Source: an uncultured Acidimicrobiaceae bacterium
Lineage (GTDB): Bacteria > Actinomycetota > Acidimicrobiia > Acidimicrobiales > Bog-793
Length of the DNA stretch: 64,000 nt
Direction: 5' to 3'
Assembly: GCA_963719125.1 (NCBI GenBank)
Contig: CAVRAT010000015.1
Location: 77,782-141,781 of the forward strand
A program made the translations under genes and the position numbers. The notes beneath the pieces are model-generated. The model was not told the origin of the DNA. It was given only the letters and a program-made list of their open reading frames with translations, and did no database searches. Below, piece by piece: positions 11,875 through 64,000 of the stretch (positions are counted from its first letter, which is position 1; the number at the start of each line of letters is the position of its first letter).

Positions 11875-11900
11875 TCTGTGCCCGACCGCGTTATGTGGCC
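11875..11900. repeat. RIT left terminal inverted repeat (26 bp)
   Basis: TCTGTGCCCGACCGCGTTATGTGGCC is the exact reverse complement of 15301-15326. Confidence 0.9.
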
Positions 11901-11958
11901 GATGACGACGATGTCCATCGATGACGCGGACTCTCTGCCGTCACCGGCCACATAACGG

Positions 11959-30773: not shown

Positions 30774-30782
30774 GTCCCAGGA

Positions 30783-33959: not shown

Positions 33960-34086
33960 CGGAGCGACGGATGGGGACATCGTCGCCGGGAGAGCGCCGC
34001 GGCCCGACTGGCGGAACGGGCGTCAACGAGTACCGGCTCAGGAGCGTCCCACGGCCGTTGCGGGCTTCACCCGGCGAGTTGACACG

Positions 34087-48312: not shown

Positions 48313-48416
48313 GCGAGTCCTATTGACACGTGCGGAATTGTCCGGGAACGGAGTCAGAGTTGCCTAGATCCGGCCTTGTAGACTGAACAACATGCCGACC
48401 CCAGTCGCAGGTTTTC

Positions 48417-49262: not shown

Positions 49263-49298
49263 AAGCTGTCCCCTGGACACCGAGCAGAAGGGACGACG

Positions 49299-50609
49299 AT
49301 GCAGCTTGCCGTAATCGGTCTTGGAAAACTTGGCTGTCCAATGGCCGCCCTGTTAGCCGCCGCGGGCTACGACGTCGTCGGAGCAGACCTGAGCGAGGCA
49401 GTTGTGGCAGCGGTCAACGAAGGTCGTGCTCCTGTAGACGAGACCGGCCTTGCTGAGCTCATGACGCAGGCTGCGCCTCGGCTATGGGCGACGACGAGCG
49501 TTGAGGAGGCGGCCGAGGATGCCGAGGTCGCTTTCTGCATCGTCCCGACCCCCAGCCTGGAGGACGACTCCTTCGACACGGGCGGCGCCGAGTCGGCTTT
49601 CACGGCCATTGGCCGTGGATTCGCACGCAAGGACCGCGGTAGGCGGGTGGCTGTGCTGACCAGCACCGTGCTGCCGGGCGCCACGGAGCTACGCATCAAG
49701 CCGGCACTAGAAAAAGGCAGTGGCATGGTTGTTGGCCCCGAGCTCGGTCTGTGCTACTCGCCAGAGTTCATCGCTCTGGGCAGCGTTATTGAGAACATGC
49801 GCCACCCAGACATGGTTCTTATGGGCTCGTCCGACACATGGGCAGCCGAAAAGGCAGCGCACATCATCAAGACAGTCGCCGACCAGGATGTTCCAGTGGC
49901 CTTCATGTCCATCGTCGAGGCCGAGATGACGAAGATATCGGTGAATGGATTCATTACCACGAAGATCTCGTACGCCAACATGATCGCCGAGATCTGTGAA
50001 CGCCTTCCCGGCGCCGACGCGGCGGTAGTGACGGCAGCGGTCGGCCTCGATTCTCGGATAGGGCAGAAGTACCTGCGCCCGGGCGCTCCGTACGGCGGTC
50101 CGTGCTTCCCGAGAGACAACGCGGCGTTCAGGGCCCTGGCCAATTCTCTCGGAGTGGAAGCAGACCTCGCAGTCGCGACCGATCGCATCAATCGCCGCCA
50201 GACGCGCCTGCTTGTCGAGAGAATCACCGACCAAGCGGGCAAAGAGGCGAGAGTTGCCATCCTGGGACTCACCTACAAGCCGTTCACTCCTGTCACAGAA
50301 GAAGGCTTCGGGACCTTGCTGGCCCGGGAATTGGTGTCGGAGGGACTATCAGTGTCGGTGTACGACCCGAAAGCGATCGTCGAACTGGACGGGGTTCATA
50401 GAACTGGGTCAGCTGAAGCCTGTATCGCTGCTGTGGATGTCGTCGTCGTGGCAACGCCTTGGCCGGAGTTCGCCGAGATCAAACATGTCGATTCAGGCCT
50501 GCTGTTCGACTACTGGCGTATCGTCCCCGAGTCCGCTCTAGCGCGGTCGACGAGGGTTTTCTACCCGGGCGCGGGCTCGGCACTCGCAGACGACCGCGCC
50601 ACTACATGA
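49299..50609 (+). CDS. Nucleotide-sugar 6-dehydrogenase (UDP-glucose/GDP-mannose dehydrogenase family)
   Basis: MQLAVIGLGKLGCPMAA.. N-terminal Rossmann fold. ..EFIALGS..KISYANM..GGPCFPRDN (catalytic Cys). C-terminal UDP-binding domain. Confidence 0.9.
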   Translation: MQLAVIGLGKLGCPMAALLAAAGYDVVGADLSEAVVAAVNEGRAPVDETGLAELMTQAAPRLWATTSVEEAAEDAEVAFCIVPTPSLEDDSFDTGGAESAFTAIGRGFARKDRGRRVAVLTSTVLPGATELRIKPALEKGSGMVVGPELGLCYSPEFIALGSVIENMRHPDMVLMGSSDTWAAEKAAHIIKTVADQDVPVAFMSIVEAEMTKISVNGFITTKISYANMIAEICERLPGADAAVVTAAVGLDSRIGQKYLRPGAPYGGPCFPRDNAAFRALANSLGVEADLAVATDRINRRQTRLLVERITDQAGKEARVAILGLTYKPFTPVTEEGFGTLLARELVSEGLSVSVYDPKAIVELDGVHRTGSAEACIAAVDVVVVATPWPEFAEIKHVDSGLLFDYWRIVPESALARSTRVFYPGAGSALADDRATT

Positions 50610-50681
50610 TGGAGACCGCCACCAGCTAGGAGTTTGTTGGCCCTTGGTCATACGAGCACCACACAGAGGACGGAGGTAAAT

Positions 50682-51698
50682 GTGCCAGTCGAACTGGACA
50701 AGGATGCGTATGTAGTCGTCGCGGGCGCAGGCGGGTTCATTGGTGGTCACCTTGTGAGCCGGCTACTCGACGACGGGTACAAGAAGATCCGAGCTGTCGA
50801 CAACAAGCCCATCGGCCAGTGGTACCAGCGACCCGCGGGCGTGGACTATGTGCAGGCTGACCTGCGACTCCTCGAATCGTGCCGTGAAGTCGTCGACGGC
50901 GCGCGCTACATATTCGACTTCGCCGCCGACATGGGTGGTATGGGTTTCATCGAGTATCACAAGGCTGACTGCATGCTTTCGGTTCTGATCGCGACTCATC
51001 TGCTCATGGCGGCGCGCGACAAGGGCACCATCGAGCGCATGTTCTTTTCGTCCTCGGCATGTGTCTATAACGCCGACAAGCAACGCGATCCGAATGTCAC
51101 GGCTCTCAAAGAGGAGGATGCCTATCCCACGCTTGCGGAGGACGGCTACGGTTGGGAAAAGTTGTTCACCGAGCGCATGTGTCGGCACTTTGACGAGGAG
51201 TTCGGGATCACCACGCGTATTGCCAGGTTCCACAACGTCTACGGCCCGAACGGTACCTGGAACGGCGTGAGGGCGAAGGCGCCTGCGGCGATCTGCCGAA
51301 AGGTGGCCGAGGCGAAGATAGGTGGCGCCTCCGAAATTGAGATTTGGGGCGATGGCGAGCAGACGCGGAGCTTCATGTACATAGACGATTGCGTCGAGGG
51401 AGTCATGAGGATCACGACGGGTGATTACGGCGATCCGCTCAATCTAGGCAGCACTGAACTCGTGTCCGTCAACCAACTTGTCGACATGATCGAGTCCATC
51501 GCTGGCATAAAGCTTCGTCGCAACTACAATCTGGCCGCGCCCCAAGGCGTGAGGGGCCGCAATAGCGACAACACACGGCTCGTTCGCGAGATCGGCTGGG
51601 AACCGCAGGTCACTCTGATGGACGGTCTGGAGCGCACGTATCGCTGGATCTATGACGAGATATCTCATGGCCGTCGGGATGTGGCCGAGGCATCATAG
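50682..51698 (+). CDS. SDR-family nucleotide-sugar epimerase, GDP-mannose 3,5-epimerase-like
   Basis: GGAGG then GTG at 50682. VVVAGAGGFIGGHL..FAADMGGMGFI..SSSACVY..YGWEKL..RFHNVYGP.GTW.G.R.KAPAAICRK closely follows GME signature blocks as I recall them. Confidence 0.8.
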   Translation: MPVELDKDAYVVVAGAGGFIGGHLVSRLLDDGYKKIRAVDNKPIGQWYQRPAGVDYVQADLRLLESCREVVDGARYIFDFAADMGGMGFIEYHKADCMLSVLIATHLLMAARDKGTIERMFFSSSACVYNADKQRDPNVTALKEEDAYPTLAEDGYGWEKLFTERMCRHFDEEFGITTRIARFHNVYGPNGTWNGVRAKAPAAICRKVAEAKIGGASEIEIWGDGEQTRSFMYIDDCVEGVMRITTGDYGDPLNLGSTELVSVNQLVDMIESIAGIKLRRNYNLAAPQGVRGRNSDNTRLVREIGWEPQVTLMDGLERTYRWIYDEISHGRRDVAEAS

Positions 51699-51763
51699 AC
51701 TTCGTTGGCCGCCTCGGGGCTCGACAGGGGTTGGCCCCGTCACCGGGTAGGAGTTTCGGATAA

Positions 51764-51805
51764 CCGCGCCGCACAAGTAGGGCGCACACTATTCGTGCGG
51801 CGCGG
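51764..51805. repeat. Perfect 11-bp-stem inverted repeat (CCGCGCCGCAC ... GTGCGGCGCGG, 20-nt loop)
   Basis: Read directly from the sequence. Lies in the 400-bp convergent spacer between the epimerase and the minus-strand methyltransferase. Possible bidirectional terminator or protein binding site. Confidence 0.4.
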
Positions 51806-51959
51806 ACAGAAGCGTGGCAACTGCACTTCCGGCGCAGAGTCGTTGCATCAGGTGAAAGCGGCACCGGAGCAACTCGTCTTATCATCTGATGTTGACGGAC
51901 GTATTTTGGGTCGCGGGTGTGCTATGACTCGAGGAGGATGTATCTCCTATCGAAAATTC

Positions 51960-52110
51960 TTAAGCCAAGTGGCATACTCATCCATCTCGGTGCCAATATC
52001 GTCTCTACAGCCTGGCGGCCGCTCGCATCGTTGGCTTGGGCGGAAGGGTGCTGGCGTTCGAGCCGAGTTCGCGCCGACCGCATCGAGCTCAGAGGTCAGA
52101 TATTCGCTGG
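51960..52110 (+). pseudogene. Possible FkbM-type methyltransferase N-terminal remnant
   Basis: Across two frames: ..ILIHLGANI / LYSLAAARIVGLGGRVLAFEPS.. resembles the FkbM motif D.GANIG.Y.L.AA...G.V.AFEP. Very short and frameshifted. Confidence 0.3.
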
Positions 52111-52866
52111 CCCAGCTAGGTACCTTGACTGCATCTCGGGAATAGTCTCCACGAGGAGAGGATTGTCGAGGGGGACCCGCGAACCTACAAAAATCGCACG
52201 AGTATTCTCCGTCGGCCGAACATCGCGGTGAAGACCAGTCCAGGCCAAGGGGAACTCTCGATGGTCAGGCTGGGTCAGTGGAAGATACCCGTGTCCCCAA
52301 AGCTCGCGGACGCGCCGAAGCACCCAGGGACGCGTCGGACGGCAGCCTTGTCCAGAGCTCGACTGATTCCTCACGTTCAGCTGTTCAGGGACGACGTTTA
52401 CCTCCTCGGTGTCGCCCGGTGCACAGCAAGTCTCAAGGAGTATCAACGACGAGACTTTGGCCAAAGCGCGGAGTGCTGTTTCGGGATTCGACAAATGGTA
52501 TAGAGTTCCGTAGCAAAAAACGACATCAAAGATGCCTATAGCTGAGATCTCGTCTGGCCTCTCCAGATCAAGACTGCAAACATTTCGGCCTGGGTAGCGA
52601 CGTCGCATCTCAGCAACGTTTTCAGGACGAGAGTCGGTGGACAGCACCGAACATCCCCGGCTTAGGAAGAACTCCGTCAGTAGTCCGATCCCCGCGCCAA
52701 CCTCGAGCACATGTCGACGATCAAGGTCGAGTCTGAGGCTCGCCAGATGATCGACGCGAGCGGTATTGAGAGATCGCGCGTCTGGGGTGACAAAGACATA
52801 GAAGGCGTTAAAGTGAACCGCAATTCGTTGTCGGATGTTCGACCGTCCGAAGCGCGATAGTGGCAT
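52096..52866 (-). CDS. Class I SAM-dependent methyltransferase (low-GC gene)
   Basis: ..HVLEVGAGIGLLTEFFLSRGCSVLSTDSRPENV.. and ..FDVVFCYGTLYHL... Local GC is about 45-55% in sampled 60-nt lines, against about 68% elsewhere. Confidence 0.8.
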   Translation of the reverse strand: MPLSRFGRSNIRQRIAVHFNAFYVFVTPDARSLNTARVDHLASLRLDLDRRHVLEVGAGIGLLTEFFLSRGCSVLSTDSRPENVAEMRRRYPGRNVCSLDLERPDEISAIGIFDVVFCYGTLYHLSNPETALRALAKVSSLILLETCCAPGDTEEVNVVPEQLNVRNQSSSGQGCRPTRPWVLRRVRELWGHGYLPLTQPDHREFPLAWTGLHRDVRPTENTRAIFVGSRVPLDNPLLVETIPEMQSRYLAGPANI

Positions 52867-53096
52867 GATTTCGATTCTAGTTGCAGATCTCTCGCTGATC
52901 TACGACCTGCTGTAACGGCCCATGCTGGGTGCTACTAGATGACCACGTCGTCGAAGACATGCGAGAGCCGCTCGAGAAAGATCAGGGGAAGAATGTAAGT
53001 CCTGGTAGTTCGGACTCGACTTCGGCGACTCAACTCCATTATCGGGGCCTCGCACCCCTGCTGACCTGGGCGAGCTGTGGATAAAGTCGAGTTTCA

Positions 53097-54918
53097 GAAG
53101 TCCGATGTAGTGACAAATGAGTGATTGACCGACGGGATCACACACCTGTAATATGTGATTCCTGTACGTGAAGGTGAGCACGGTGCGTAGCGGCAAGAAG
53201 ACCTACCGCTATCTCACCTTGGCCGAGTCGTTCCGCAACGAGGACGGCCAGCCCCGGAGCCGGATCGTCGCCCGCCTGGGCGAGGTGTCGGAGATGACCA
53301 CCTCGGGCGAGCTCGAGCGCATCGTCGATGCCCTCTCGGCCCAGTTGGGACGCGGAGCTTCTCTCGAGCTCACCGCCGAGTCCGCTCCCTCTTATGGGGC
53401 GATGGCGGCTTGCGACGCAGTCTTCTCGCGCCTGTCGCTTGATGAGCTGTTCGACACCCTTGGTGCTCGCCGGCGCTCGGCCGGCCTCTCGGACGCGGTC
53501 TTCGGGATGGTGGCGAACCGGTTGTCGGACCCCTCCTCGAAAAGGCGCTGTGTCACCGACTGGCTCGGTGCCGACGCGGCACTGCCCGAGGCTCGCAGCG
53601 CCCCGTCGCTCGACCGGCTATATCGGGCCTTGGACGCGGTCGCGGACTGTAAGGACGAGATCGAGGCCCGCTGCTACACAGAGCTGTGCAATCTGACAAA
53701 CCTGGATCTGCGCCTTGTCTGTTACGACCTCACCTCCACCTACTTCGAGGGGGACGAGAAGGTCTCGGACAGCTTTCCCTCCAAGGCCTTCGGCTACAGC
53801 CACGACCATCGGGGCGACCGGCCGCAGATCGTGATCGGATTCCTCGTCACATCCGACGGCATCCCGATCGCCCATCACGTCTTTGCGGGCAACACGGCGA
53901 ACCGATCGACGCTGGCCGAGGTGATGGCCGACCTGCAGGCACGCTTCGGGGTTGGACGCATCGCCCTTGTGGCAGACAGAGGCCTCATCTCAGAGGAGAA
54001 CCTGGCCCTGGTCGCCGAGCGCGGCTTCGACCACGTACTCGCGACCCGCCTCCATCGCGATCCGTCGGTCGCCGCTGTCTTGGAGGCTGCCGCCGACAAA
54101 GACGCCGTCTTCGTGCCGGTGGGAGACGACGGGACCAGAGCGACCGAGGTCACCTACGAGTCCCGCCGCTATGTCGTGGTCGATTACCCCAAGCGTCACG
54201 TGCGCGACGGCGCCCGTCGATCGGAACTGTTGGCGCGAACGGAGGATCGCCTAAGGGCCCTTGCAGATCGGGTGCGTAAGGGCCGCCTCGTCGACCCGGC
54301 CAAGATCGGCGCCGCCGCCGACCGGATCCTCAGGGACTCGGGGGTCTCGCGTTGTTTTTCGACCAGGATCGCCCACGGGGTCTTCACCTGGGACTACGAC
54401 GAGGAGGCCATGGGCTACGAGGAGAGGCTCCTTACCGGACGCTACGTGATCACGACCTCGCTCGACCAGAAGACCGCTTCGACCGCAGAGGTCGTCGGCC
54501 ACTACAAGGCCCTGCAGTCGGTCGAACGGCGCTTTCGAGTGCTGAAGGACTTCTTAGCGCTGCGCCCGGTCTTCCACTACACCGAAAAGCGCGTGCGGGG
54601 TCACGTCGCTATCTGCGTGCTTGCCGCTGTCCTGGAATCCGTGATGAGCATCGACTTGAGGGCCCGAAAGCTCACCGACCCGGACCTCGAGGGCAGCACC
54701 TCACCGCTCGGCGGGCGCTTCGTGAGCTCGAGCGGGTCCGGATAGTCCGCTTCAGTGAAGCGGACGGCAACGAACCTCAGGTCGTGACCCGGCCGAGCCC
54801 CTTCCAGGCCGAGATCCTCGCCGCTCTCGGTGTCGACACTTCCGCTTGGCGCTCACGCGTCGCCTGATCACCGACGATCACACGCGATGTAGGGCAAAAA
54901 CTGCCTACGCGCGACTTC
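53097..54918 (+). mobile_element. IS1634-family insertion sequence (ends approximate)
   Basis: Transposase 53168-54867. Weak IR candidates GAAGTCCGATGTAG (53097-53110) and the complement of CTACGCGCGACTTC (54905-54918), 10 of 14 matching. No TSD identified. Confidence 0.5.
53168..54867 (+). pseudogene. IS1634-family transposase with an apparent -1 frameshift at a G run (54691-54693)
   Basis: VKVSTVRSGKKTYRYLTLAESFRNEDGQPRSRIVARLG..CYDLTSTYFEG..GYSHDHRGDRPQIVIG..VADRGLISEEN... The C-terminal ..QHLTARRALRELERVRIVRF.. continues in another frame to 54867. Confidence 0.8.
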
Positions 54919-55182
54919 GTGACTAGGACCTTTAGGTTTGAGCCGCCGAAGTCGGGTCGGAGCGTCGAGCTACCCGCGAATCTAGCGAGCAACGTCCCCG
55001 ATAGGAGTACTAAGGGCCTTCAAACCGAGGGGGCCGTTCCCATCCATGCTGCGCCGTTCCTCGAATCCTGATCCACAGTCGTATCCGGACGTATCATGCG
55101 ATCGACTACTGGACAATGCAGTACGCGATATGATGCTGTTGCCGTCATCGCCATGATGGCGTTCTAACCCGACGGACACTAG

Positions 55183-56367
55183 TCATCGCGCTCTAAGTGC
55201 TCGTACATCAGTGATGTCTGCCTTCTCCAAGCCCCAATCAGGTTGGTTATACAAGACCTCGTGATTGTGCGCGGCGAGAAGCGAACGCTTCATCGCTCGC
55301 AGTTCCGCGGGCTTGATGTGGGGCATCCCGCGCTGTTCTACAGCGGCGTAGTGCTTTTGGTGCCCCTCGGGTGTCCAGCCGGAGCCCGAGGCGTGCTCCA
55401 TATGGTACGCGACAGCGGGAGGTTCGACGTCCACAAATCGCAGGCCATTCGCGTGCATTTGATGCATGAAGATCGTGTCGAGATGCATTGAGTGAACGAC
55501 CAGCTCTGGATAAGCCCGAAATCTCCACCAATCATGTCGTGATAGCAATGTGAAGTCACCGCAAGCGTTGACGTTTAACCTAGGAAGAATCATGAGATCA
55601 GCGAGTGCTCTAGCCCGATCCAGTGCGAAGCGCGAGATGGCACCTAACGACCGAGCGTCTTTTGGCCTGTGCCTGGGAAGTTGAAGCAATGGCCTGGCAG
55701 CGCTGTGGCTAGGATGCCCCCCAAGATGCCGCACCGAAGAGAATAGCTGGGTGACCTGCCATGCTAGGAAGTCACCGACGCCTTGGTAGATCGGTAAGAC
55801 TCGCCCGAGCCGAGGATAGTAAATGCCGTCTCTCCGCTCGTATCGGATCGGGTGCGATTTGCAGAAGGCTAGAGCTTCTTCGACCGTGGCGACGCCGTCG
55901 GGGAAGGGAAACTCGACGTCGTTACGGTCGGCCCGCCACACCGTCCCGTCCCCGATTTTGGTGGTGGTGAAGTCGAACAACTCAGGCGCGAGCAGGATGT
56001 CTATGTTAGTGGCGAGAACGTTATCCCCGTGGGCACGCCGAATGCCGACGTTCTTCGCGATCATTTGTAACATTGGTATGCCACCTTCGGGAAGCAATCT
56101 CTGGTGCTCAGCGTGCGGAACGGTGAGGACGCGTACAGACAGCATTGACTCTCCCGAAGGCCAGCGCATTGTGTCGATAAGTGGCGCTCGGTCCTCCGGA
56201 GGGTTCCATTCGACGAGTACGAGCTCCACGCTGACATGGCGTCGATCTGCATTCCACGCCAGTCCATCGACGAACCACTGCATTCTTTCGAGGAGATGTC
56301 CGCCATGATCGTCGTTGCGGCTTGTCGTCACGACGCTCAGACGTGGTCGACTGAGGGGGAGACTCAC
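55183..56367 (-). CDS. Uncharacterised putative glycosyltransferase (GT-A-like)
   Basis: The GTG start overlaps the upstream stop (GTGA). ..LSVVTTSRNDDHGGHLLERMQWFVDGL..VELVLVEWNPP..NIDILL... The part of the 510-aa ORF upstream of 56367 overlaps the flippase and is rejected. Confidence 0.55.
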   Translation of the reverse strand: MSLPLSRPRLSVVTTSRNDDHGGHLLERMQWFVDGLAWNADRRHVSVELVLVEWNPPEDRAPLIDTMRWPSGESMLSVRVLTVPHAEHQRLLPEGGIPMLQMIAKNVGIRRAHGDNVLATNIDILLAPELFDFTTTKIGDGTVWRADRNDVEFPFPDGVATVEEALAFCKSHPIRYERRDGIYYPRLGRVLPIYQGVGDFLAWQVTQLFSSVRHLGGHPSHSAARPLLQLPRHRPKDARSLGAISRFALDRARALADLMILPRLNVNACGDFTLLSRHDWWRFRAYPELVVHSMHLDTIFMHQMHANGLRFVDVEPPAVAYHMEHASGSGWTPEGHQKHYAAVEQRGMPHIKPAELRAMKRSLLAAHNHEVLYNQPDWGLEKADITDVRALRAR

Positions 56368-57866
56368 TTTGGCCTTTCCTCTCTGGTCGCGTGCCCCAAG
56401 CGTGAAACACCAAAGGTAAGAGACCCATAGATCGCGAGCAACACGAGCAGTTCCGGGATCATAAGCCAACCACCTCGAGGGGCATATCCTGCAGTGAGGT
56501 GCATCACAAGGTAGATCGCGATAAGAACGGCCGAGATGAGGAAAAACCGCCCACTTTGCTCCAGTGAGACTCCGAAACCGGCGACGCGCCGAAATGCCGT
56601 AGCGCCCCATACGACGATCACCACGCTCCCTGTGAGGAGGGCGATAGCTGCGGCCGACGCGGCATAAAAGGGAATCGTGGAACCGGCGACCACCAAAGCA
56701 GCGACAGTCGCCCAAAGCGTTATTCGTAGCACAATTCCCTCTGCTTGAAGGTAAACCAAGCCGTCGATGAAGACTGCTGCCGGGCAGGACAATGCTGCGT
56801 AGAAGCTCAGCAACACGAGGGGTGTCGCGCCTCCGGCGAAGCCTCGTCCAGCGATTAGTACGAGTCCAGGGCGCGCAAAGACGATCGCAGCTAGGGGCAA
56901 AGCGGCTCCCCCCAGGGTCAAGACATCGAAGGCGCGCTGGGTGAGGCGCTGTCTGCGGATGGACGAACCGTCGATGAACTTCGGGAGCATGGCGGCCGTG
57001 AGCACATATGGGACAGCTGTGCCGAAGACGGCGAGTTGGAGAGCCACGCCGAACTCCCCGACCGTGGCGAGCGGCGCCAAGAGCGACAACAACACGACGT
57101 CGACCTGGACCGCGATGCTGCTCAGCACTTGGCTAATACCGAGAGGCGTGGCACTTCTGATCAACTCCCGGACTTGTTGGCGGCCCGATCGGAAGTCGGC
57201 ACGAACGTAGTGACGAGCGATGCCAAGGCCCAGCAGCGCCGTTGCGACATCTGCCGCGACAGTGAGCCACAAATAGCCTGCCACGCCAAGCGCCGCGGCC
57301 ACCGTTGTCCCGGCCGCTCCAAGCAGGAAGAGGCTGCTGGTGAGATCGATGAAAGCTCGAGCATCGTTGCGGGCTTTGGCGATGAGCACAGCACCGCTGA
57401 TTACCCAGGCGGCATTGGGAGGCAGGCTTACGACGAGGACGAGACTGAGGGCTCGAAGATGAGGATGCTTAGCATAGACAACGAACGCGGCGGCGGTCAT
57501 CATTGCCATGGCAACTGAAGAAACGATCAGGCCAGCCAGCAGGCCGCCACCGTAAACTGCTCGATCGTTCGCCCCGGGTGTTGCCATCTCCCTGCTGACG
57601 ATGCGAGTTAAACCGAAGTCACAGAGTCCTACGAACAAGTTTGCGACCGCGGAGGCAGCGACGACCTCGCCCCAGCGCACTGGGCCGAAGTCGTGGGTGA
57701 TTAAGCGCAAGGCAACAAGCGATACCGCCGCTCCGGCTACGCGACCAATCAACCTGGTCGAGGCGTTGTAACTGACCCGCGCACGCAATTTTCGTCTTCC
57801 TGCCGAATCAGCCGAGCTTGCCGGCGTCGCCGGTCGGGCGTCTGGACCGCTCGAAGACTGAGTCAT
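56364..57866 (-). CDS. Wzx-type flippase (MOP superfamily), third in the window
   Basis: 500 aa, about 12-14 hydrophobic helices. Polysacc_synt-like N-terminus (..NASTRLIGRVAGAAVSLVALRLITHDFGPVRWGEV..). Confidence 0.85.
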   Translation of the reverse strand: MTQSSSGPDARPATPASSADSAGRRKLRARVSYNASTRLIGRVAGAAVSLVALRLITHDFGPVRWGEVVAASAVANLFVGLCDFGLTRIVSREMATPGANDRAVYGGGLLAGLIVSSVAMAMMTAAAFVVYAKHPHLRALSLVLVVSLPPNAAWVISGAVLIAKARNDARAFIDLTSSLFLLGAAGTTVAAALGVAGYLWLTVAADVATALLGLGIARHYVRADFRSGRQQVRELIRSATPLGISQVLSSIAVQVDVVLLSLLAPLATVGEFGVALQLAVFGTAVPYVLTAAMLPKFIDGSSIRRQRLTQRAFDVLTLGGAALPLAAIVFARPGLVLIAGRGFAGGATPLVLLSFYAALSCPAAVFIDGLVYLQAEGIVLRITLWATVAALVVAGSTIPFYAASAAAIALLTGSVVIVVWGATAFRRVAGFGVSLEQSGRFFLISAVLIAIYLVMHLTAGYAPRGGWLMIPELLVLLAIYGSLTFGVSRLGHATREERPK

Positions 57867-57878
57867 TCCTTCCGCCCG

Positions 57879-59204
57879 CTAGCGGGCTTTGCCCTCGAAG
57901 ATCGTTCGCAATGTCCGGCCCAGGATACGCAAGTCCAGGCTCAGGCTCTGGTGACGGAGGTAGAAGAACTCGTACTGCAGTTTCTCGAGGGCGTCGATGT
58001 CGCTCGATCCGTAGTCGTAGTTGATCTGTGCCCAGCCCGTGATACCTGGACGGACGAGATGGCGCAGCTCGTAGAAGGGGATGGTCTTCGTTAACAGCTC
58101 GACGTAGTGCGGTTGCTCCGGCCGTGGTCCCACGATCGACAGATCGTGGCGAATGACGTTCCACATCTGCGGCAGCTCGTCGACGTGGAGTTTCCGAAGC
58201 ACCCGGCCGACCTTGCCGAGCCGAGGGTCGTCTTCTGCGGTCCAGTCCGAGGACAAGCCCCCAGGGCGCATCGTCCGGAACTTGTGAATCGTGAACACGA
58301 CACCGTCCTTGCCCACTCGGGGCTGGCTGTAGAAAAGGGGCCCGCGATTGCCGAACAAGTCGACGATCGCCACGATCGGCACGGCTACGGCAAGGGCCAG
58401 TAGTCCGAGCAGGGCGATCACGAGGTCCAACGCCCTCTTGCTCCGCGCGTAGGCAGGCCTGTGGATCTCGTTGATGTCGAACAGTAGAGAGATGCGCTCG
58501 AGTTCCGAGATCGGCAATCTGCCTAGCCAGACGTCGTAGAAGAGCGAGAGCGTCCGGATCCGCACCCCCTTTGAGTGGAGCTCTGCGGCTTGAGCGACGA
58601 TCTCCTCGCGTTGTTGCGATTCCCGGTCGAGTACCAGGAGGTTCGCATTGGCCGACTTCACGAGTTGCGCCAAGAGCATGGGCTCGTCAGGCGTTGGCAT
58701 CACGTCGTCGGGACGAGCCACCGCGACAAGCAGGGCCGGCCTTTCGGCGAGTTGCTGCGTATCGCGGACTAGGCGGTTTGCTTCTTCACCTGCGACGATC
58801 GCGACCACTCGATCGAGGTTCGCGCGCCTGCGCTGGGTGGCGCCCGATAGTCCGGAGACGAGCACGAAGACAGGCACCAGGATCACCGAGCTGACGAAGA
58901 CGACAAAGCGCGGAAGCAGCTGGGCACCCGTGAAGAGCTGCAGAACAGAGATTATGACGTCGGCGGCCACTAGCGCGGCAAACGCCCTCGCGAACTGTCG
59001 CGAGAGGCGACCTCCCCCGTCCGGAAGCCCTGCTGCGTAGCTGGTTGCCCAGATCAGGGCGATGAAGATCAGGATCCATCGGAAACGTGGCTCTTCAGTC
59101 AGCGAATAAACATGCCGAGCTACGTAGTGTGAATGAACCACTTCGGTCGCGATGACGACGGCTAGCGTCAAGACGGGAAGGAGCCACTTGACCGGACGAC
59201 TCAT
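57879..59204 (-). CDS. Polyprenyl-phosphate phosphoglycosyltransferase (WbaP/EPS sugar-transferase type, initiating enzyme)
   Basis: ATG at 59204 (MSRPVKWLL..). N-terminal TM helices and central Rossmann-like domain. C-terminal Bac_transf motifs ..GPLFYSQPRVGKDG..F.IHKFRTM..DPR....G..LR...VDELPQ..NV..G.LS.VGPRP..PGITGWAQ. Confidence 0.9.
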   Translation of the reverse strand: MSRPVKWLLPVLTLAVVIATEVVHSHYVARHVYSLTEEPRFRWILIFIALIWATSYAAGLPDGGGRLSRQFARAFAALVAADVIISVLQLFTGAQLLPRFVVFVSSVILVPVFVLVSGLSGATQRRRANLDRVVAIVAGEEANRLVRDTQQLAERPALLVAVARPDDVMPTPDEPMLLAQLVKSANANLLVLDRESQQREEIVAQAAELHSKGVRIRTLSLFYDVWLGRLPISELERISLLFDINEIHRPAYARSKRALDLVIALLGLLALAVAVPIVAIVDLFGNRGPLFYSQPRVGKDGVVFTIHKFRTMRPGGLSSDWTAEDDPRLGKVGRVLRKLHVDELPQMWNVIRHDLSIVGPRPEQPHYVELLTKTIPFYELRHLVRPGITGWAQINYDYGSSDIDALEKLQYEFFYLRHQSLSLDLRILGRTLRTIFEGKAR

Positions 59205-59274
59205 CACAAACCATTCAAGCCCAGAAGAAGCCGGCAGCGGTGCCAATGATCTGGTTGGCGCGCCCGGGAGTGAA

Positions 59275-61131
59275 ATGTCGGGGTCGCGTGGGTTGCTGCC
59301 GCAGGATCGCTTCGGCGGGGTGAGCGGGCTCGGCGCGTTCGCCGCTGTCGGCGCAGCTCTTCTCTGCCTTGCCTTTTCGCCCAAGGTGGATTCGGTGACC
59401 TTCACGCCGAAGTACGCCGTGTTGCTCATCTTCGCCGCGGTAGGCATCGTGCCCGTGGCGCGTCTCGTCACCAGCCGTTCGCCGCTACGTTGGCCTGCGA
59501 GAGCAGCGGTCGCGTTTCTCGCCGTCGCCCTCGTATCGGCGCTGGTCTCCCCGTCGCCGAACATCGCGTTCTTCGGCCTATATCTCTGGGGTACGGGCTG
59601 GCTGTTCTGGCTCGGAGTCGTCGGCGCCTTCGCAATCGGTGCCTCACTTGGTCCGAAGGATCGTCGCTGGCTGTTTTGGGGCCTGCTCGTCGGCTCAATT
59701 GGCAGCGCGGTTGTTGCGGTCTTCGAGATCGTCGCCAATCCTTCAACCCCGGGTTTCAGTCTCTATGACGGCACGCAGGCGGCCGGTTTCCTGGGGAACC
59801 CGATCTATTTGGAGGCTCTCCTGCTCGGCGGGCTCGCGCTGGTGCTAGGCAGAGCGTGCTGGTCACCGCTGCGGTGGGGCGCTCCCGTTCTCGTGCTCGC
59901 CGTCGCGCTCGAATTCACCTTTGAGCGCTTCGCGATCGTGGTGCTCGTCCTGCTGGTCCTATATGCGCTGTATGCCTACGGCGTTCGCCGTGGTGGGCTG
60001 TTCGCGTTGCTCGTTGGCGTCGGCTACGGCATCGCCTACCTCGGTGGGGGCTCCGGCCTCGGTTCCAGGGTGACCTCGGGAACTTCCGAGAGCACTTTCG
60101 GGCTCCGACTGCGAGTGTGGTTGCAATCGGCGCACTACGTGCTGCACCATCCTCTGCTGGGTGCCGGCCCCGGTCAGCTCCGAACTGCGATGGACTCGAG
60201 CGCCACCCTCTCGTTCTTTCAGCGAGTGCTGGCTGGCAGGGTGTTGACCGACGGCCATGACATGTTCGTCGAGGTCGCCGTCACGACCGGGCTCATCGGC
60301 ATGGCCTGTTTCCTCGTGTGGCTGGTCAGAGCCGCCCGGATGGCAGCGCGTGGAGCCTTTCTGGGATTTGCCGCGGCGATGTTCGCGACTGAGCTCGTGG
60401 AGCCGATCAACATAGCCATCATCCCTCTCGCGTTCCTGGCCCTAGGTGCCGCAACGGCACAGCGATCCATACCTGAGTGCTCATCCGCCGATACCGCTCC
60501 TCAGCTGGCAGAACAGCAGATTGCTGATGTCAATGGCCCCAAGGCGAACGGCCGCCGCGTCGCCGTTTATCTCACAACCATCGTCGCGCTCGCTCTTGCG
60601 CTTTTTCTCGGAGCGACGATGGTGGCAGGCGACGCCTACATGTTCCGCGGGACGAACTTCGCTCCCGGCCAGCCGTACAATCTTGCGGCCGCGAGTGACG
60701 GGAATCGGCTCTTGCCCTACTGGCCGGACTCGGCGCTCAAGCTAGCCCAGATCGAGGCCTTCGACAGCATCAGCGGCGTGTCCTCCACGGCTACAGCCCA
60801 CCTGGCCGAAGCGCGCCGGTGGACGGCGGTTGCCGCGAACCGGGACTCGCACAGCCCGCAGCTCTGGACGCTCTTGGCGGTCGCGGACGTCGATCTCAAA
60901 GCCTACGGGCATGCCCGCACCGAGTACTACCGCGCGCTCTCATGCGACAAATGGTTCACGCAGGCGCTCCAAGGTCTCGGCCAGCTCGCGGGGATCGATC
61001 ATAACTGGAACGAGGCTGTCCACTTCTACCGGTTGGCTCTGACGACGGCGAAATACGATGCAGAGCTGGCAGCGCCACTGCGCGTCTTGCTCAGCAGCGC
61101 GGAACGGAATGCCAGACCCGCCGGTGGGTGA
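59275..61131 (+). CDS. Wzy_C (O-antigen ligase/O-oligosaccharyltransferase/polymerase family) membrane protein with C-terminal TPR-like domain
   Basis: ATG 59275. At least 10 TM helices. ..RLRVWLQSAHYVLHHPLLGAGPGQL.....GHDMFVEVAVTTGLIG is the Wzy_C signature region. C-terminal soluble part has TPR-like repeats (..YYRALSCDKWFTQALQGLGQL..AVHFYRLAL..). Confidence 0.8.
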   Translation: MSGSRGLLPQDRFGGVSGLGAFAAVGAALLCLAFSPKVDSVTFTPKYAVLLIFAAVGIVPVARLVTSRSPLRWPARAAVAFLAVALVSALVSPSPNIAFFGLYLWGTGWLFWLGVVGAFAIGASLGPKDRRWLFWGLLVGSIGSAVVAVFEIVANPSTPGFSLYDGTQAAGFLGNPIYLEALLLGGLALVLGRACWSPLRWGAPVLVLAVALEFTFERFAIVVLVLLVLYALYAYGVRRGGLFALLVGVGYGIAYLGGGSGLGSRVTSGTSESTFGLRLRVWLQSAHYVLHHPLLGAGPGQLRTAMDSSATLSFFQRVLAGRVLTDGHDMFVEVAVTTGLIGMACFLVWLVRAARMAARGAFLGFAAAMFATELVEPINIAIIPLAFLALGAATAQRSIPECSSADTAPQLAEQQIADVNGPKANGRRVAVYLTTIVALALALFLGATMVAGDAYMFRGTNFAPGQPYNLAAASDGNRLLPYWPDSALKLAQIEAFDSISGVSSTATAHLAEARRWTAVAANRDSHSPQLWTLLAVADVDLKAYGHARTEYYRALSCDKWFTQALQGLGQLAGIDHNWNEAVHFYRLALTTAKYDAELAAPLRVLLSSAERNARPAGG

Positions 61132-61255
61132 TGACGTCAGCAGGGGCGCACAGAGACCGTGTGATCACTCAGAGCGTCAGGTTGGGCTAAAGTTTTCCCC
61201 GATGCTGCCGATGACTACTCGGTAGCAGTTTCCATTGACCCGAGGAGGAAAGCTT

Positions 61256-61843
61256 ATGAGGAACGTTCCCGAGAGGCTCCGTGCGCGGCGCCTTAGGTTG
61301 GAGGAGGCGGGTGAGGAGGGCTTCACGCTCATCGAGCTGCTCGTTGTCCTGCTCATCATCGGCATCCTGCTCGCGATCGCCATCCCGACGTTCCTGTCGG
61401 TGACCAAGACCGCGAACAACACCGCCGCGCAGGCCAACTTGCAGACCGCCCTGACCGGCGCCGACACCTACTACACCAGCGACAACCAGACCTACTCCGG
61501 CATCGACGTGGCTGGGCAGGGCGTGTCGAACATCTCGCAGATCGACACTGGCTTGACGTATGTGAGCCAGGCTGATTCGACCAAGGCGAACGTGGTCTCG
61601 CTTGACGTCGCTACAGTGACTCCGGCGAAAACCACGCTAGTGATGGCGGCTTTCTCGCCGGGTACGAACGACTGCTGGATCATCCAAGACCAGAAGTCGA
61701 CGATCACAGCATTTGACGGCGCACCCACGGCTGCCGGCACCTATTACTCAGTGATCAAGGGCAGCAGCCCTACAACTTGCACATCCGTTCTTAGTGCGGC
61801 ACCAGCGAGCGGCTGGTCAACCACCGGCTTCCCGAAGGGGTAG
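61256..61843 (+). CDS. Type IV pilin / pseudopilin with class III signal peptide
   Basis: GAGGAGG then ATG 61256. Leader MRNVPERLRARRLRLEEAGEEG, then FTLIELLVVLLIIGILLAIAIPTF (prepilin peptidase site G/F, E5). Two Cys (..NDCW.., ..PTTCTS..) and a Ser/Thr-rich C-terminal tail. Confidence 0.85.
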   Translation: MRNVPERLRARRLRLEEAGEEGFTLIELLVVLLIIGILLAIAIPTFLSVTKTANNTAAQANLQTALTGADTYYTSDNQTYSGIDVAGQGVSNISQIDTGLTYVSQADSTKANVVSLDVATVTPAKTTLVMAAFSPGTNDCWIIQDQKSTITAFDGAPTAAGTYYSVIKGSSPTTCTSVLSAAPASGWSTTGFPKG

Positions 61844-61908
61844 TCGTCGGCCCAAGATCTGCCTAGGGAGTTACTGGGTTTTCTCCAATGGCAGTATCAG
61901 CGATTGTG

Positions 61909-61940
61909 AAGGACCTCCCGGCCCTGGCCAGGAGGTCCTT
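61909..61940 (+). terminator. Candidate intrinsic terminator after the pilin gene
   Basis: 10-bp stem AAGGACCTCC / GGAGGTCCTT with a 12-nt loop, followed by TTC. 66 nt downstream of the pilin stop. Only a weak T tract. Confidence 0.4.
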
Positions 61941-62099
61941 TCGCGGTATGGGCCGACAGTCTCGCCAGCAAGGAGATGAGAGTCCTTCCTGAGCTTTGGT
62001 CGTTGAAGTTCAGTAGCTGATGCCCAGTGCGTCGTGCCGACCCGGGGTGCGGAGGGGGCGAAGGCAAAGCCACAGGCCCGAGCGCGAGCAAACGGATTT

Positions 62100-62640
62100 A
62101 GGCTGTCCATCGGTGGTGACCTGCTTGCGAACAGGGAAGCCGAGGACCCATCCCTCCGCCCGCTGAGCTCATCCCAGCTGGGCGAATAAACGATCCAAGC
62201 GGGGTACGTGGGAGGTGATTTCGTCGGGCCGTGGCGACGTCAACGCGCGACATATTGATCCACGAGCTGCAGGTGGGTGAAGTGGAGATGAACGCGTGGA
62301 TGTCGCACCAGCCAGCGCCCGACGTCGAGATGTTCGGCGCTGAACGGTTGATTCGGTGGAAGAATCTGCTGGTGGTGCCGGAACAGACGTGATCGTGTGT
62401 GCGGACGTTCGGGCAGTCCAGAGCGCAATGGGAGCACCTGCGATGGGACCGAGGCGGCTTCCGCGTCGCGTGCTGGTGCCATCTCGATCTGGACGGGCAC
62501 TTCGCCCGGATCGGCAAGGCGCGCCGCTCTGTCGCCCGCCGATGCGGTTTCGTGATGACGGCGAACCTCAACATTGTCAGCCTGTGCTCGGATCGGAGCG
62601 TAGGGCGATCGGTGACGGCTCCGCGCCGACATCGTGCGCC
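62100..62640 (-). pseudogene. IS630-family transposase C-terminal remnant, multiply frameshifted
   Basis: Pieces in different minus-strand frames: ..FSAEHLDVGRWLVRHPRVHLHFT / PTCSSWINM.. resemble the IS630 ..HPR.HLHFTPT..SWLN.VE.. block. Confidence 0.4.
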
Positions 62641-62908
62641 CAGATGAGAAGGCGGGACATTCAGGGCTGCTACCCGGGTGCTCGACGTAGTCGCCGAGTA
62701 CAAGGAGGCGACGGACGGAGGCCCATTTGTTCAGGGAGGTCCGCGGTCTCGGCGACCGCTATCTCCGGCTCCCGCGCTGTGACTCGACCTCCTCGAGGTA
62801 TGACCTGAAGTTGTGGATCACCCACTCGTCCAAAGGCGCGACGTACCTTCCTCGTTGAAATCCAAGACGAGCAGCCGGCGTTAGCGCGCCGGCGAGGAAG
62901 GGACGCCG

Positions 62909-64000
62909 ATGTTGAGCGTAGTGAACAACGACGAGGCCGGCGCGGAAGGTCGCTCGAACCTTGACGAGATCTGTCGCGAAGGTGCGAGGACGATGCTCGC
63001 CGCGGCCTTGGAGGCCGAGGTCGACGCCTATCTCGCCGAGCTCGTAGACGAGCGTGATGAGGACGGGCATCGCCTCGTGACGCGCAACGGCCACGCACGA
63101 CAGCGCAAGGTCCAGACCGTGGCCGGCGCGGTCGAGATCACAGCACCGAGGGTGAACGACAAGCGCGTGGACGAGGAAACCGGTGAGAAGGCCCAGTTCC
63201 GCTCCGTCATCATCCTGCCCTGGTGCCGGAGATCCCCGAAGGTCACCGAGGTCCTGCCGCTTTTGTACCTGCACGGACTCTCGACAGGGGACTTCGCCCC
63301 TGCCCTCGAGGGCTTCTTCGGTTCTGCAGCTGGGTTGTCGGCCTCTGTGATCACCCGGCTCACCACCGCTTGGCAGGACGAGCACCGTGCCTTCATGGCG
63401 CGCAACTTGGCGGACCGGGACTACGTGTACCTCTGGGCCGACGGGGTGCACTTCAACGTGCGACTCGAAGAGGAACGGCTGTGCTGTCTCGTGATCGTCG
63501 GTGTTCGCCTCGACGGCAAAAAGGAGCTCGTCGCGATCGCGGACGGCTACAGGGAGTCCACCGACTCCTGGGCGGCGTTGCTAAGAGACCTGCGCCACCG
63601 CGACATGCGCGCCCCGGTCGTCGCGGTCGGTGACGGTGCGCTCGGGTTCTGGGCAGCCCTTCGAGACGTGTTCCCCGAGACCAAAGAGCAGAGGTGTTGG
63701 GTGCATAAATCCGCGAACATCCTCGACGCCCTGCCCAAGTCCATCCAGCCGCTCGCTAAGACGATGCTCGCCGAGGTGAGAGACGCCGAAGACCGTGAGC
63801 ACGCCCGCGACGCCGCCAAGGCCTTCGACAACGAGTTCTGTGCCAAGTGGCCGAAGGCCGCCGAAAAGCTCCACGACGACCTCGGACCGCTGCTGTGCTT
63901 CTTCGACTTCCCGGCCGAGCACTGGGTGCACTTGAAGACCGCGAACCCGATCGAGTCGACCTTTTCGACCGTGAGGCTAAGGACGAAGGTGACCAAGGGC
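62909..64000 (+). CDS. IS256-family (Mutator-type) transposase, 3' partial (runs off window)
   Basis: My own translation from ATG 62909 is open to the window end: MLSVVNNDEAGAEGRSNLDEICREGARTMLAAALEAEVDAYL..LPLLYLHGLSTGDF..YLWADGVHFNVRLEE..CWVHKSANILDALPK..NPIESTFSTVRLRTKVTKG. Not in the supplied ORF track because it has no stop. Confidence 0.9.
   Translation, partial: MLSVVNNDEAGAEGRSNLDEICREGARTMLAAALEAEVDAYLAELVDERDEDGHRLVTRNGHARQRKVQTVAGAVEITAPRVNDKRVDEETGEKAQFRSVIILPWCRRSPKVTEVLPLLYLHGLSTGDFAPALEGFFGSAAGLSASVITRLTTAWQDEHRAFMARNLADRDYVYLWADGVHFNVRLEEERLCCLVIVGVRLDGKKELVAIADGYRESTDSWAALLRDLRHRDMRAPVVAVGDGALGFWAALRDVFPETKEQRCWVHKSANILDALPKSIQPLAKTMLAEVRDAEDREHARDAAKAFDNEFCAKWPKAAEKLHDDLGPLLCFFDFPAEHWVHLKTANPIESTFSTVRLRTKVTKG

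Follow-up and report, generated by a model that had tools for sequence, protein, structure and literature searches.

The window, i.e. the whole 64,000-nt stretch of DNA analysed, harbors a divergent arrangement of glycan and pilus genes around the gene of a Wzy_C-family membrane enzyme with 618 aa (59275-61131, plus strand), a candidate pilin O-oligosaccharyltransferase (O-OTase). Its start lies 70 nt from that of a minus-strand gene (57879-59204) for a large initiating polyprenyl-phosphate sugar-1-phosphate transferase (PGT) of the WbaP/WcaJ type, which matches Pfam Bac_transf with 184 bits and NCBIfam TIGR03025 with 281 bits, slightly below the cut-off of 295. A 12-nt gap separates the PGT gene from that of a Wzx-like flippase (56364-57866, minus strand; Polysacc_synt, 57 bits in Pfam), which is part of a variable glycan island and whose stop codon overlaps with a further minus-strand ORF (55183-56367) in the sequence GTGA, as read directly. 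On the other side, a 124-nt spacer leads from the Wzy_C gene to a type IV prepilin gene (61256-61843, plus strand), which encodes the presumed major pilin and acceptor. The original prediction had named the PGT, the flippase, the Wzy_C protein and the prepilin; all four are located at the coordinates that it gave, with Pfam or NCBIfam support, and its four intergenic distances and overlaps agree with the coordinates and the sequence. Its designation of the ORF 55183-56367 as a glycosyltransferase (GT) holds for the reading frame and the GTGA overlap but not for the function, since searches of Pfam, NCBIfam and PDB returned no match; a 55% identical homologue is present in a related locus (L001).

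The rest of the variable island (46317-52866) is located between a conserved GGDEF gene and an insertion sequence (IS). Pfam matches and ORF reading identified a GT2 (46317-47414), a soluble ORF (about 47440-48312), a methyltransferase (48417-49262), a UDP-Glc/GDP-Man dehydrogenase (49299-50609), an epimerase/dehydratase (50634-51698) and a second methyltransferase (52096-52866, minus strand). The IS transposase within the island (DDE_Tnp_1; 53168-54745, plus strand) is also found in L116, a contig with 99% identity, and a predicted IS256-family transposase beyond the pilin proved to be present as a Transposase_mut ORF (202 bits; 62885-64000, plus strand) that is cut by the window end. The IS630 remnant, likewise proposed to follow the pilin gene, comes down to 16 residues that match an IS630-like ORF of L004. 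The window is 99.1% identical to L116 from 51264 to 62794, and the divergence coincides exactly with the start of the IS256 element. In its place L116 contains pilO, about 230 bp past the end of collinearity, together with pilM, pilC, pilB and a prepilin peptidase gene; the pilin of the window is thus parted by IS256 from the pilus assembly genes that come next in L116.

The Wzy_C domain (residues 205-347; 44 bits in Pfam against a cut-off of 31.7) lies in a protein with 13 predicted transmembrane (TM) helices. Hydropathy and the positive-inside rule place a catalytic loop of approximately residues 259-329 on the extracytoplasmic side, and the predicted topology continues via a disordered cytoplasmic linker (about 398-428) and TM13 (429-447) to an extracytoplasmic domain (about 470-613). 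The C-terminal 150 or so residues match consensus TPR and OGT TPR in a profile search (E 1e-55 to 1e-16), which establishes the predicted periplasmic TPR-like tail as a true TPR domain. Both the topology and an AF2 model (pLDDT 89, pTM 0.90) locate the catalytic loop and the TPR domain on the same, extracytoplasmic side. The Pfam domains PglL_A and Wzy_C_2, which are the marks of PglL and PglS, are absent from the protein in a Pfam search.

Eight residues are invariant in the Wzy_C homologues (E213, E217, R218, R265, R278, D326, H328, E333), with R218, R278 (together with R265) and H328 retained in 62 of 62 sequences. The regions of R218, R278 and H328 align with the segments 'GVRLKIW' and 'HAHNDIVE..TTG' of the O-antigen ligase WaaL from Cupriavidus metallidurans (PDB 7TPG), in an alignment that spans the catalytic loop and its flanking helices including the Arg and His motifs. 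E. coli WaaL needs the triad R215/R288/H338 to function, and R224/R298/H349 is its equivalent in PglL, conserved among PglLs (PMC3643930); a His equivalent to H328 is required in TfpM (PMC9829042). R218/R278/H328 accordingly match the Arg/Arg/His triad of WaaL and PglL. No sequence test distinguishes O-OTases from WaaL-type ligases (PMC12645811). For the membrane part, the WaaL of C. metallidurans is the single relative by sequence in the PDB, and the only solved structure with detectable similarity (E 1e-11). In databases, the family is listed as 'O-antigen ligase family protein'. Both observations favor the possible, though rather unlikely, alternative that the enzyme acts as a ligase like WaaL, or with lower likelihood as a polymerase, for a non-protein surface glycan such as a lipid-anchored or wall-linked polysaccharide, and that its pilus neighbors are co-regulated surface structures encoded in one hot spot. 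TPR domains, moreover, are present in exopolysaccharide export proteins too. Conversely, WaaL (413 aa) is devoid of a thirteenth helix, a TPR domain and a link to pilin genes, and its acceptor, the lipid A-core, is to our knowledge absent from Actinomycetota.

The prepilin of 195 aa starts with an ATG at 61256, and a ribosome-binding site (GGAGGA) lies 6 nt before it. Matches to N_methyl (28 bits) and TIGR02532 (30 bits) and the sequence itself confirm the predicted G/FTLIELLVV cleavage motif and the two cysteines; the 22-residue leader (MRNVPERLRARRLRLEEAGEEG) directly precedes FTLIELLVV, with which the mature protein begins. The pair Cys140-Cys175 is followed by a 20-residue tail that ends in W-S-T-T-G-F-P-K-G, and in an AF2 model, which comprises the alpha1 helix and a beta-sheet, this tail is a coil at lower confidence. 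The C-terminus GFPx[G/A] is shared by 116 of 120 homologues, 114 of which carry Ser or Thr directly before GFP (position -6), and family alignments define the conserved end as aromatic-x-x-[S/T]-G-F-P-x-G. The 17-26 residues from the second Cys to this motif are hypervariable. The tail had been described as Ser/Thr-rich, and an enrichment does exist across the 120 homologues but is modest (median 29% versus 24% in the rest of the pilin).

Our comparative analysis covered 34 assessable loci with Wzy_C homologues (36-90% identical), all from MAGs of the Acidimicrobiales, an order to which every named relative, likewise a MAG, belongs. This order consists of uncultured actinobacteria of soil and peat. 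A pilin gene adjoins the Wzy_C gene in 25 of these loci, and searches that began with the pilin found a Wzy_C gene directly upstream in three of three cases (7 contigs). The divergent PGT is kept in the same position in most pilin-linked loci, and in many the pilin is followed by pilO-pilM-pilC-pilB, with two or three pilB-type ATPases. Minor-pilin-like ORFs are present on the opposite side of the Wzy_C gene in L027, L028 and L031. The pilin gene does not adjoin the Wzy_C gene by chance. A fortuitous adjacency had been raised as an alternative with the original prediction, and IS elements, which border and disrupt the locus of the window, could have produced it by rearrangement in this single genome; this reading is extremely improbable, because the same layout recurs in 25 loci that are independent and stem from different MAGs and sites, which refutes it. 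Some loci carry an IS or an acidic coiled-coil ORF between the Wzy_C and pilin genes, thus indicating that their co-transcription is not universal.

Eight loci constitute a paralogous clade (class B) with the context gpsA-GT2-Wzy_C and neither pilin nor PGT nearby, which shows that the Wzy_C family is not tied to pilins as such. These paralogues speak for the ligase alternative, as do L026, where the PGT and the Wzy_C gene are kept without a pilin within the next 2 kb, and the resemblance of the islands to ordinary Wzx-dependent polysaccharide loci. Against it stands the position of the enzyme gene directly upstream of the major pilin gene and with matching orientation, which is held over very deep divergence and seen from both search directions. 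Furthermore, genes for a chain-length regulator, an LCP ligase or any other polysaccharide export function were not seen in the loci, and the gene lists of the islands are free of a second Wzy-like membrane protein and of Wzz/PCP and LCP genes. The polymerase form of this alternative is opposed by the unequal conservation of the loci: identity amounts to 75-92% for the PGT (close clade), 60-80% for Wzy_C and 54-66% for the pilin, but only 30-36% for Wzx, and the remaining sugar genes are replaced. The island genes 46317-52866 recur only in L001 and L012 and partly in L029, with other sugar genes elsewhere. A Wzy_C protein that is conserved while flippase and sugar genes change argues against a repeat-unit polymerase; this pattern fits an O-OTase, as such enzymes are reported to read the lipid carrier and the reducing-end sugar and to tolerate the rest of the glycan (PMC12645811).

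The closest parallels in genetic logic are the pilin-dedicated O-OTases TfpO (PilO) of Pseudomonas aeruginosa 1244 and Acinetobacter and TfpM of Moraxellaceae (PMC12645811, PMC9829042). As in these enzymes, Wzy_C is the sole catalytic Pfam domain and both PglL_A and Wzy_C_2 are lacking, the gene adjoins in the same orientation a pilin gene, whose product is modified there and predicted to be modified here, and the donor is, in our proposal, a polyprenyl-PP-linked oligosaccharide from a Wzx-type pathway (PMC12645811). The conserved His, essential in TfpM (PMC9829042), is invariant here. By contrast, the genes of TfpO and TfpM are located downstream of the pilin and that of the present enzyme upstream; their hosts are diderm Proteobacteria rather than a monoderm actinobacterium; and TfpM has 425 aa, TfpO is given a similar size and neither is described with a TPR domain, whereas the present protein, of 618 aa, has one more TM helix and a TPR domain. 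TfpO and TfpM modify the very last pilin residue, a Ser or Thr, with which none of the 120 pilins ends, so that the predicted TfpO analogy holds for the genetic logic but not for the acceptor.

PglL (Neisseria, Burkholderia) and PglS (Acinetobacter baylyi) share the Arg/Arg/His set (PMC3643930) and glycosylate Ser or Thr at internal positions of pilins or the pilin-like ComP, in flexible segments rich in Ala, Ser and Pro. A general PglL-like O-OTase for many extracytoplasmic proteins, with the pilin as its most abundant substrate and without specific recognition through TPR or GFPxG, is nevertheless a distinctly unlikely explanation. Pilins are also glycosylated by general O-OTases, and PglL typically targets stretches of low complexity that are rich in Ala, Ser, Thr and Pro, resembling the pilin tail (PMC12645811); L036 encodes, away from the enzyme gene, a related pilin whose tail is of this kind. 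However, tight substrate linkage is reported as typical of the dedicated TfpO, TfpM and PglS and not of PglL (PMC12645811). Of 31 surveyed PglL homologues, all from Gram-negative bacteria, 21 adjoin pilin genes (PMC3643930). The lack of the marker domains PglL_A and Wzy_C_2 also sets the protein apart from PglL and PglS, and the class B clade suits the role of a general enzyme better.

In architecture, the Wzy_C protein instead resembles an enzyme of Firmicutes: WsfB, the O-OTase proposed for the S-layer protein of Paenibacillus alvei, combines Wzy_C with a C-terminal TPR motif, while WsaB, with WsaA the S-layer protein O-OTase of Geobacillus stearothermophilus, has a separate TPR protein encoded alongside (PMC2943079). 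WsfB and WsaB likewise belong to Gram-positive hosts, possess a Wzy_C domain and are encoded in or near glycan clusters with an initiating PGT (PMC2943079). Their acceptor is an S-layer protein and their phylum another one, and the likeness is one of domain description.

Judged from its sequence and genomic context, the 618-aa protein is probably a protein O-OTase with the major type IV pilin, the product of the next gene downstream, as its cognate substrate. The synteny, the pilus genes and the Arg/Arg/His set lend support to the candidate pilin O-glycosylation system of the original prediction, and none of the three findings that it had named as contradicting it in silico was made: the adjacency is conserved in relatives, pilus assembly genes are present, and the protein, with its ligase/OTase-type residues and a conservation far above that of the flippase, does not group with polymerases. 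In the proposed pathway, the divergent PGT would load the first sugar phosphate onto polyprenyl phosphate, the enzymes of the strain-variable island would extend and modify a short oligosaccharide, and the Wzx-like flippase would bring it to the membrane's outer face. The Wzy_C domain may then, either while the pilus is being assembled or earlier, transfer it en bloc to a pilin Ser or Thr, with an Arg/Arg/His site as in WaaL and PglL. We infer that the TPR domain docks the pilin, most plausibly via its conserved C-terminal motif, which would bring into the active site the invariant Ser/Thr that precedes GFP, or else the adjoining variable tail. The claim that no such OTase has been characterised in Gram-positive-type genomes does not extend to Firmicutes (WsaB, WsfB; PMC2943079) and applies, as far as we found, to Actinomycetota only, for which a pilin-linked O-OTase system would be new to the literature.

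The gene of the candidate pilin O-oligosaccharyltransferase (O-OTase) lies near the end of the window, between a divergent sugar-transfer operon and a pilin gene. On the minus strand, an open reading frame (ORF; 55183-56367) overlaps the gene of a Wzx-like flippase (56364-57866; Polysacc_synt, 57 bits) by a GTGA, as read directly from the sequence, and the coordinates leave a gap of 12 nt between the flippase and a large polyprenyl-phosphate phosphoglycosyltransferase (PGT; 57879-59204; Bac_transf 184 bits, TIGR03025 281 bits). The plus-strand gene of the 618-aa Wzy_C protein (59275-61131) starts 70 nt from the PGT start and is followed, after a 124-nt spacer, by a prepilin gene (61256-61843; N_methyl, TIGR02532) on the same strand, with GGAGGA before its ATG at 61256. 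The spacer contains one hairpin (61203-61227) with a weak T tract, and a scan of 58900-62900 for sigma-70 promoters found none. All genes listed in the original prediction are present, including the ORF at 55183-56367, but its designation as a glycosyltransferase has no match in Pfam, NCBIfam or the PDB to back it. The support for an IS630 remnant behind the pilin gene comes down to a match of 16 residues. An IS256-type transposase ORF extends from 62885 past the window end (64000).

Elsewhere the window carries a dense mobile-element block (4328-15184) with a large serine recombinase (4328-6559), an ISL3 transposase (9011-10279), a DDE_Tnp_1 transposase (10302-11303) and three adjoining tyrosine recombinases (11959-15184). 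A second, separate polysaccharide-type cluster (21204-42393) is located upstream of conserved DUF3090/GGDEF genes. It encodes a DegT aminotransferase, another Wzx-like flippase (26256-27845), two GT2s, a GT4, two ATP-grasp ligases, a GNAT protein, an FAD/NAD protein and an F420-hydrogenase-beta-like Fe-S protein, together with three large ORFs (29448-34090) that have no Pfam match.

The conservation of the pilin linkage was assessed in 36 distinct loci with a homologue of the Wzy_C protein, comprising the window, three long contigs, 31 further genome loci and one metagenome locus; two of them are cut off by a contig end, leaving 34 assessable loci. A pilin of the same family stands beside the Wzy_C gene in 25 of these 34, in 24 cases oriented the same way and inverted in one, and the divergent PGT is kept in most of them. 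Eight loci have neither pilin nor PGT nearby, and a single one (L026) contains PGT and Wzy_C genes with no pilin within the following 2 kb. The reciprocal approach, exact look-ups of three pilin clusters on long contigs (7 contigs), retrieved a Wzy_C gene directly upstream and a divergent PGT in all three cases. The adjacency thus recurs among relatives, and that pilin and Wzy_C genes are neighbours by chance is extremely improbable. All named relatives are metagenome-assembled genomes (MAGs) of Acidimicrobiales/Acidimicrobiaceae from peat, palsa and Danish soils; neither the homologue search nor a second search with a profile of distant members found named relatives beyond Acidimicrobiales or a cultured organism. 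A metagenome scan seeded with the pilin N-terminus returned mostly unrelated type IV pilins of other phyla; the one new family locus with gene context was L037, and L036 holds a related pilin away from such a locus.

The linkage extends to the pilus machinery. In at least 11 loci, including L001, L002, L004, L008-L011, L033, L035 and L037, the pilin is followed by pilO, pilM, pilC and pilB-type ATPases; in L018 the pilO/M/C/B-type genes are found on the other side, and minor-pilin-like ORFs are located upstream in L027, L028 and L031. Contig L116 matches window positions 51264-62794 in a single block of 99.1% identity; beyond it stand pilO, pilM and pilC, genes for T2SSE ATPases (two or three) and one for an A24 prepilin peptidase. 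This collinearity places the IS256 of the window about 230 bp ahead of pilO. The pilus assembly genes whose existence the original prediction had made a point of are therefore found in a nearly identical contig, and those of the window's own genome most likely lie just beyond the window end. Acidimicrobiales, like Actinomycetota in general, are monoderm, and the gene lists of the compared loci contain no secretin gene, which matches the expectation for a monoderm pilus.

Insertion sequences have hit the pilin/Wzy_C locus repeatedly in different MAGs. They are located between Wzy_C and pilin genes in L004 (about 12049-12615) and L007 (11871-13100), and they separate pilin from pilO in the window (62885-64000) and L117 (9207-11560). 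A DDE_Tnp_1 insertion among the sugar genes of the window (53168-54745) is also present in L116, which does not have the IS256. Some loci, the window not among them, harbor a gene for an acidic low-complexity protein directly after the Wzy_C gene (L001 11679-12302; L002 11874-12866; L026 5785-6567; L032 11931-13418); in L026 it stands where the pilin would be. These proteins share a conserved coiled-coil segment (..VLEGREHALN..) at the N-terminus and a DDFF motif at the C-terminus. Neither they nor the product of 55183-56367 has a match in Pfam, NCBIfam or the PDB, except for a below-threshold, low-complexity hit of the PE-repeat region in the L026 protein to Trypan_PARP (43.8 bits, cut-off 100).

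The 618-aa protein contains a Wzy_C domain (PF04932/IPR007016; residues 205-347) that scores 44 bits in Pfam against a cut-off of 31.7, and PF04932 is found in all listed homologues except P0113, a partial sequence. At E <= 0.01 it is the only Pfam domain detected; there is neither PglL_A (PF15864) nor Wzy_C_2 (PF11846). The sole solved membrane protein matched by the family profile is the O-antigen ligase WaaL of Cupriavidus metallidurans (7TPG, E 1e-11), and the match spans the catalytic loop and its flanking helices, aligning 'GLRLRVW' with 'GVRLKIW' of WaaL and 'DGHDMFVEV..TTG' with 'HAHNDIVEA..TTG'. Six residues (R218, R265, R278, D326, H328, E333) are invariant in 62 homologues. They include the Arg/Arg/His set of O-OTases and ligases, represented by R218, R278 (and R265) and H328; the loop 259-329 is predicted to be extracytoplasmic. 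The corresponding residues (R215/R288/H338 of WaaL, R224/R298/H349 of PglL) are reported to be required in E. coli WaaL and to be conserved among PglLs (PMC3643930), and TfpM likewise requires its equivalent His (PMC9829042).

The C-terminal 150 or so residues are a bona fide TPR domain, with matches to consensus TPR proteins and the TPR of OGT at E 1e-55 to 1e-16. The AlphaFold model is of high confidence (pLDDT 89, pTM 0.90) and has a single long disordered stretch (401-418), and hydropathy combined with the positive-inside rule predicts 13 transmembrane (TM) helices. According to this topology, the catalytic loop 259-329 faces outward and is followed by three helices, as in WaaL, and thereafter by a basic cytoplasmic linker, TM13 (429-447) and an outward-facing TPR domain. 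The TPR domain, the active site and the pilin awaiting assembly would hence share one side of the membrane. A Foldseek search of the full-length model against the PDB retrieved TPR proteins only and gave no ranking of WaaL, Wzy and O-OTase folds.

The glycan genes surrounding this core are far less constant. Across the close clade, identities amount to 75-92% for the PGT, 60-80% for the Wzy_C protein and 54-66% for the pilin, and to 30-36% for the flippase. The remaining sugar genes of the window encode a methyltransferase, a UDP-sugar dehydrogenase, an epimerase, a second methyltransferase and an ORF of no recognised family; all five recur in L001 and L012, the first three also in L029, and other loci have different sets with a dTDP-sugar isomerase, a DegT aminotransferase, an acetyltransferase or several GT2s. 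A repeat-unit polymerase (Wzy) is expected to vary with its glycan, and a protein that stays constant while these islands differ is unlike such an enzyme. The island gene lists contain no second Wzy-like membrane protein, no LCP gene and no Wzz/PCP, the chain-length regulator with which Wzy polymerases work. Assignment as Wzy O-unit polymerase is thus disfavoured by 60-80% identity despite 30-36% in Wzx and differing sugar genes, with no Wzz/PCP listed, and the suspicion that the protein would group with polymerases is not borne out by this comparison. O-OTases are described as sensitive to the reducing-end sugar and largely indifferent to the remainder of the glycan (PMC12645811). An initiating enzyme and a final transferase that stay constant around an exchangeable middle correspond to this description, but the pattern of constant core and variable island fits a ligase with a non-protein acceptor equally well, so that the argument depends mostly on the pilin linkage. 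We consider it unlikely, on balance, that the enzyme is a ligase or polymerase for a non-protein glycan that merely neighbours the pilus genes.

The eight pilin-less loci (L016, L017, L020-L022, L024, L025 and L034; e.g. L020 7021-11166) form one clade in the distance tree and have a common context, in the fixed order gpsA (glycerol-3-phosphate dehydrogenase), GT2 and Wzy_C-TPR gene. This paralogous clade of the same Wzy_C-TPR protein, at about 40% identity, might serve these bacteria as a general O-OTase or as a ligase for wall glycan. The window enzyme belongs with the genes that adjoin a pilin, and it is quite improbable that it is itself a general O-OTase with multiple substrates. The GT2 of the window (46317-47414) has homologues of 58-79% identity in several pilin-linked loci, and others directly upstream of the pilin-less paralogue, so that, in contrast to the other genes of the glycan island, it accompanies both Wzy_C-TPR clades as a conserved partner. 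It could not be assigned to a specific family, the best NCBIfam matches being far below their cut-offs.

The presumed acceptor can be classed as the major pilin of a type IVa-like monoderm pilus by its class III signal EG|FTLIELLVV (G-1, F+1, E+5), alpha1 helix, two conserved Cys and the assembly genes in contig L116 (99% identical). As modelled, the pilin has the typical alpha1 helix and beta-sheet, and its tail is a coil of lower confidence; Foldseek returned no match for this model at E <= 0.001. In this family the first 50 mature residues are near invariant and both Cys are shared by all members; beyond the second Cys follow a hypervariable stretch of 17-26 residues of Ser, Thr, Ala, Gly and Pro and then a conserved end. 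This end reads GFPx[G/A] in 116 of 120 homologues, of which 114 have Ser or Thr at position -6 and 102 Trp, Phe or Tyr at position -9; none of the 120 ends in Ser or Thr. The Ser/Thr-rich tail invoked in the original prediction amounts to a slight enrichment (29% versus 24% in the core) that fails as a discriminating feature; with so small a difference, the case rests on the conserved [S/T]GFPxG end and the hypervariability of the tail. Two near-invariant N-x-T sites (prepilin residues 54-56, ANNTAA, and 77-79, NQTY) are located at the end of the alpha1 helix or just past it. In L001 (12414-14643), L029 (5619-6927) and L031 (12015-13423) the major pilin gene is present two or three times in tandem, and the copies diverge chiefly in their surface loops and C-terminal tails.

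C-terminal peptides are common ligands of TPR domains. The TPR domain of the enzyme would accordingly recognise the conserved C-terminal motif of the pilin, and the sugar acceptor may be either the invariant Ser/Thr ahead of GFP or a residue in the variable tail. The in-silico tests proposed with the original prediction and run here support pilin O-glycosylation, and for these uncultured organisms we predict from sequence that the Wzy_C protein is probably a pilin O-OTase.

Reviews name four O-OTase classes (TfpO, TfpM, PglS and PglL), all of them characterised in Gram-negative bacteria (PMC12645811; PMC9829042). A survey of 2013 listed 31 PglL homologues, all Gram-negative, of which 21 are encoded beside pilin genes, an arrangement its authors read as functional evidence (PMC3643930). 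The Wzy_C protein resembles TfpO and TfpM in the lack of PglL_A and Wzy_C_2 and in a gene that adjoins the pilin gene in the same orientation, but differs in the reversed gene order, its size and its TPR domain, and the C-terminal Ser/Thr acceptor rule fails for its pilins. It differs from PglL and PglS in the absence of the flanking PglL_A and/or Wzy_C_2. WaaL acts in an LPS core/O-antigen locus on lipid A-core, whereas the present loci, from a lineage of Acidimicrobiales (Actinomycetota), contain no LPS genes and fit the WaaL class poorly. By description, the closest architecture is that of WsfB, the proposed S-layer O-OTase of Paenibacillus alvei, in which Wzy_C is joined to a C-terminal TPR; in Geobacillus, WsaB is accompanied by a TPR protein from a separate neighbouring gene (PMC2943079). 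These Firmicute enzymes make the claim that no such system existed in Gram-positive-type genomes too broad. It appears to hold for Actinomycetota, for which our literature searches found no en bloc O-glycosylation of this kind, the only Gram-positive precedent found being the S-layer of two Firmicutes. The known protein O-glycosylation of Actinomycetota is PMT-type mannosylation.

Judged by class descriptions, the enzyme appears to follow the logic of a pilin-dedicated O-OTase, yet fails a defining feature of each named class. We tentatively propose, as a possibility that may well not hold, a fifth O-OTase class dedicated to the major pilin of monoderm Acidimicrobiales, with a WaaL-like core, an extra TM helix and an extracellular TPR domain. 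The TPR domain would read aromatic-x-x-[S/T]-G-F-P-x-G, and the glycan would be transferred to Ser/Thr -6 or the hypervariable tail; a constant PGT would supply a constant reducing-end sugar, possibly a hexose, and the exchangeable island would diversify the pilus surface. If such a fifth class exists, the paralogous clade might be the general O-OTase, by analogy with the TfpO and PglL pair of Acinetobacter.

For bioconjugate vaccines, OTases are wanted that accept non-acetamido reducing sugars and recognise short transplantable sequons. With a WbaP/WcaJ-type PGT and a short C-terminal motif, the Wzy_C-TPR family is worth screening for glycoengineering. If true, our reading would also provide a concrete hypothesis for the choice of a protein acceptor by a TPR domain. 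With a pilin-linked O-OTase shared throughout an abundant order of peat and soil bacteria, both en bloc O-glycosylation and type IV pili that bear glycans would be extended to a new phylum and envelope type. The constant core of PGT, OTase and pilin with its swappable island suggests that the pilus surface is diversified from strain to strain, for instance where phages or grazers exert pressure.
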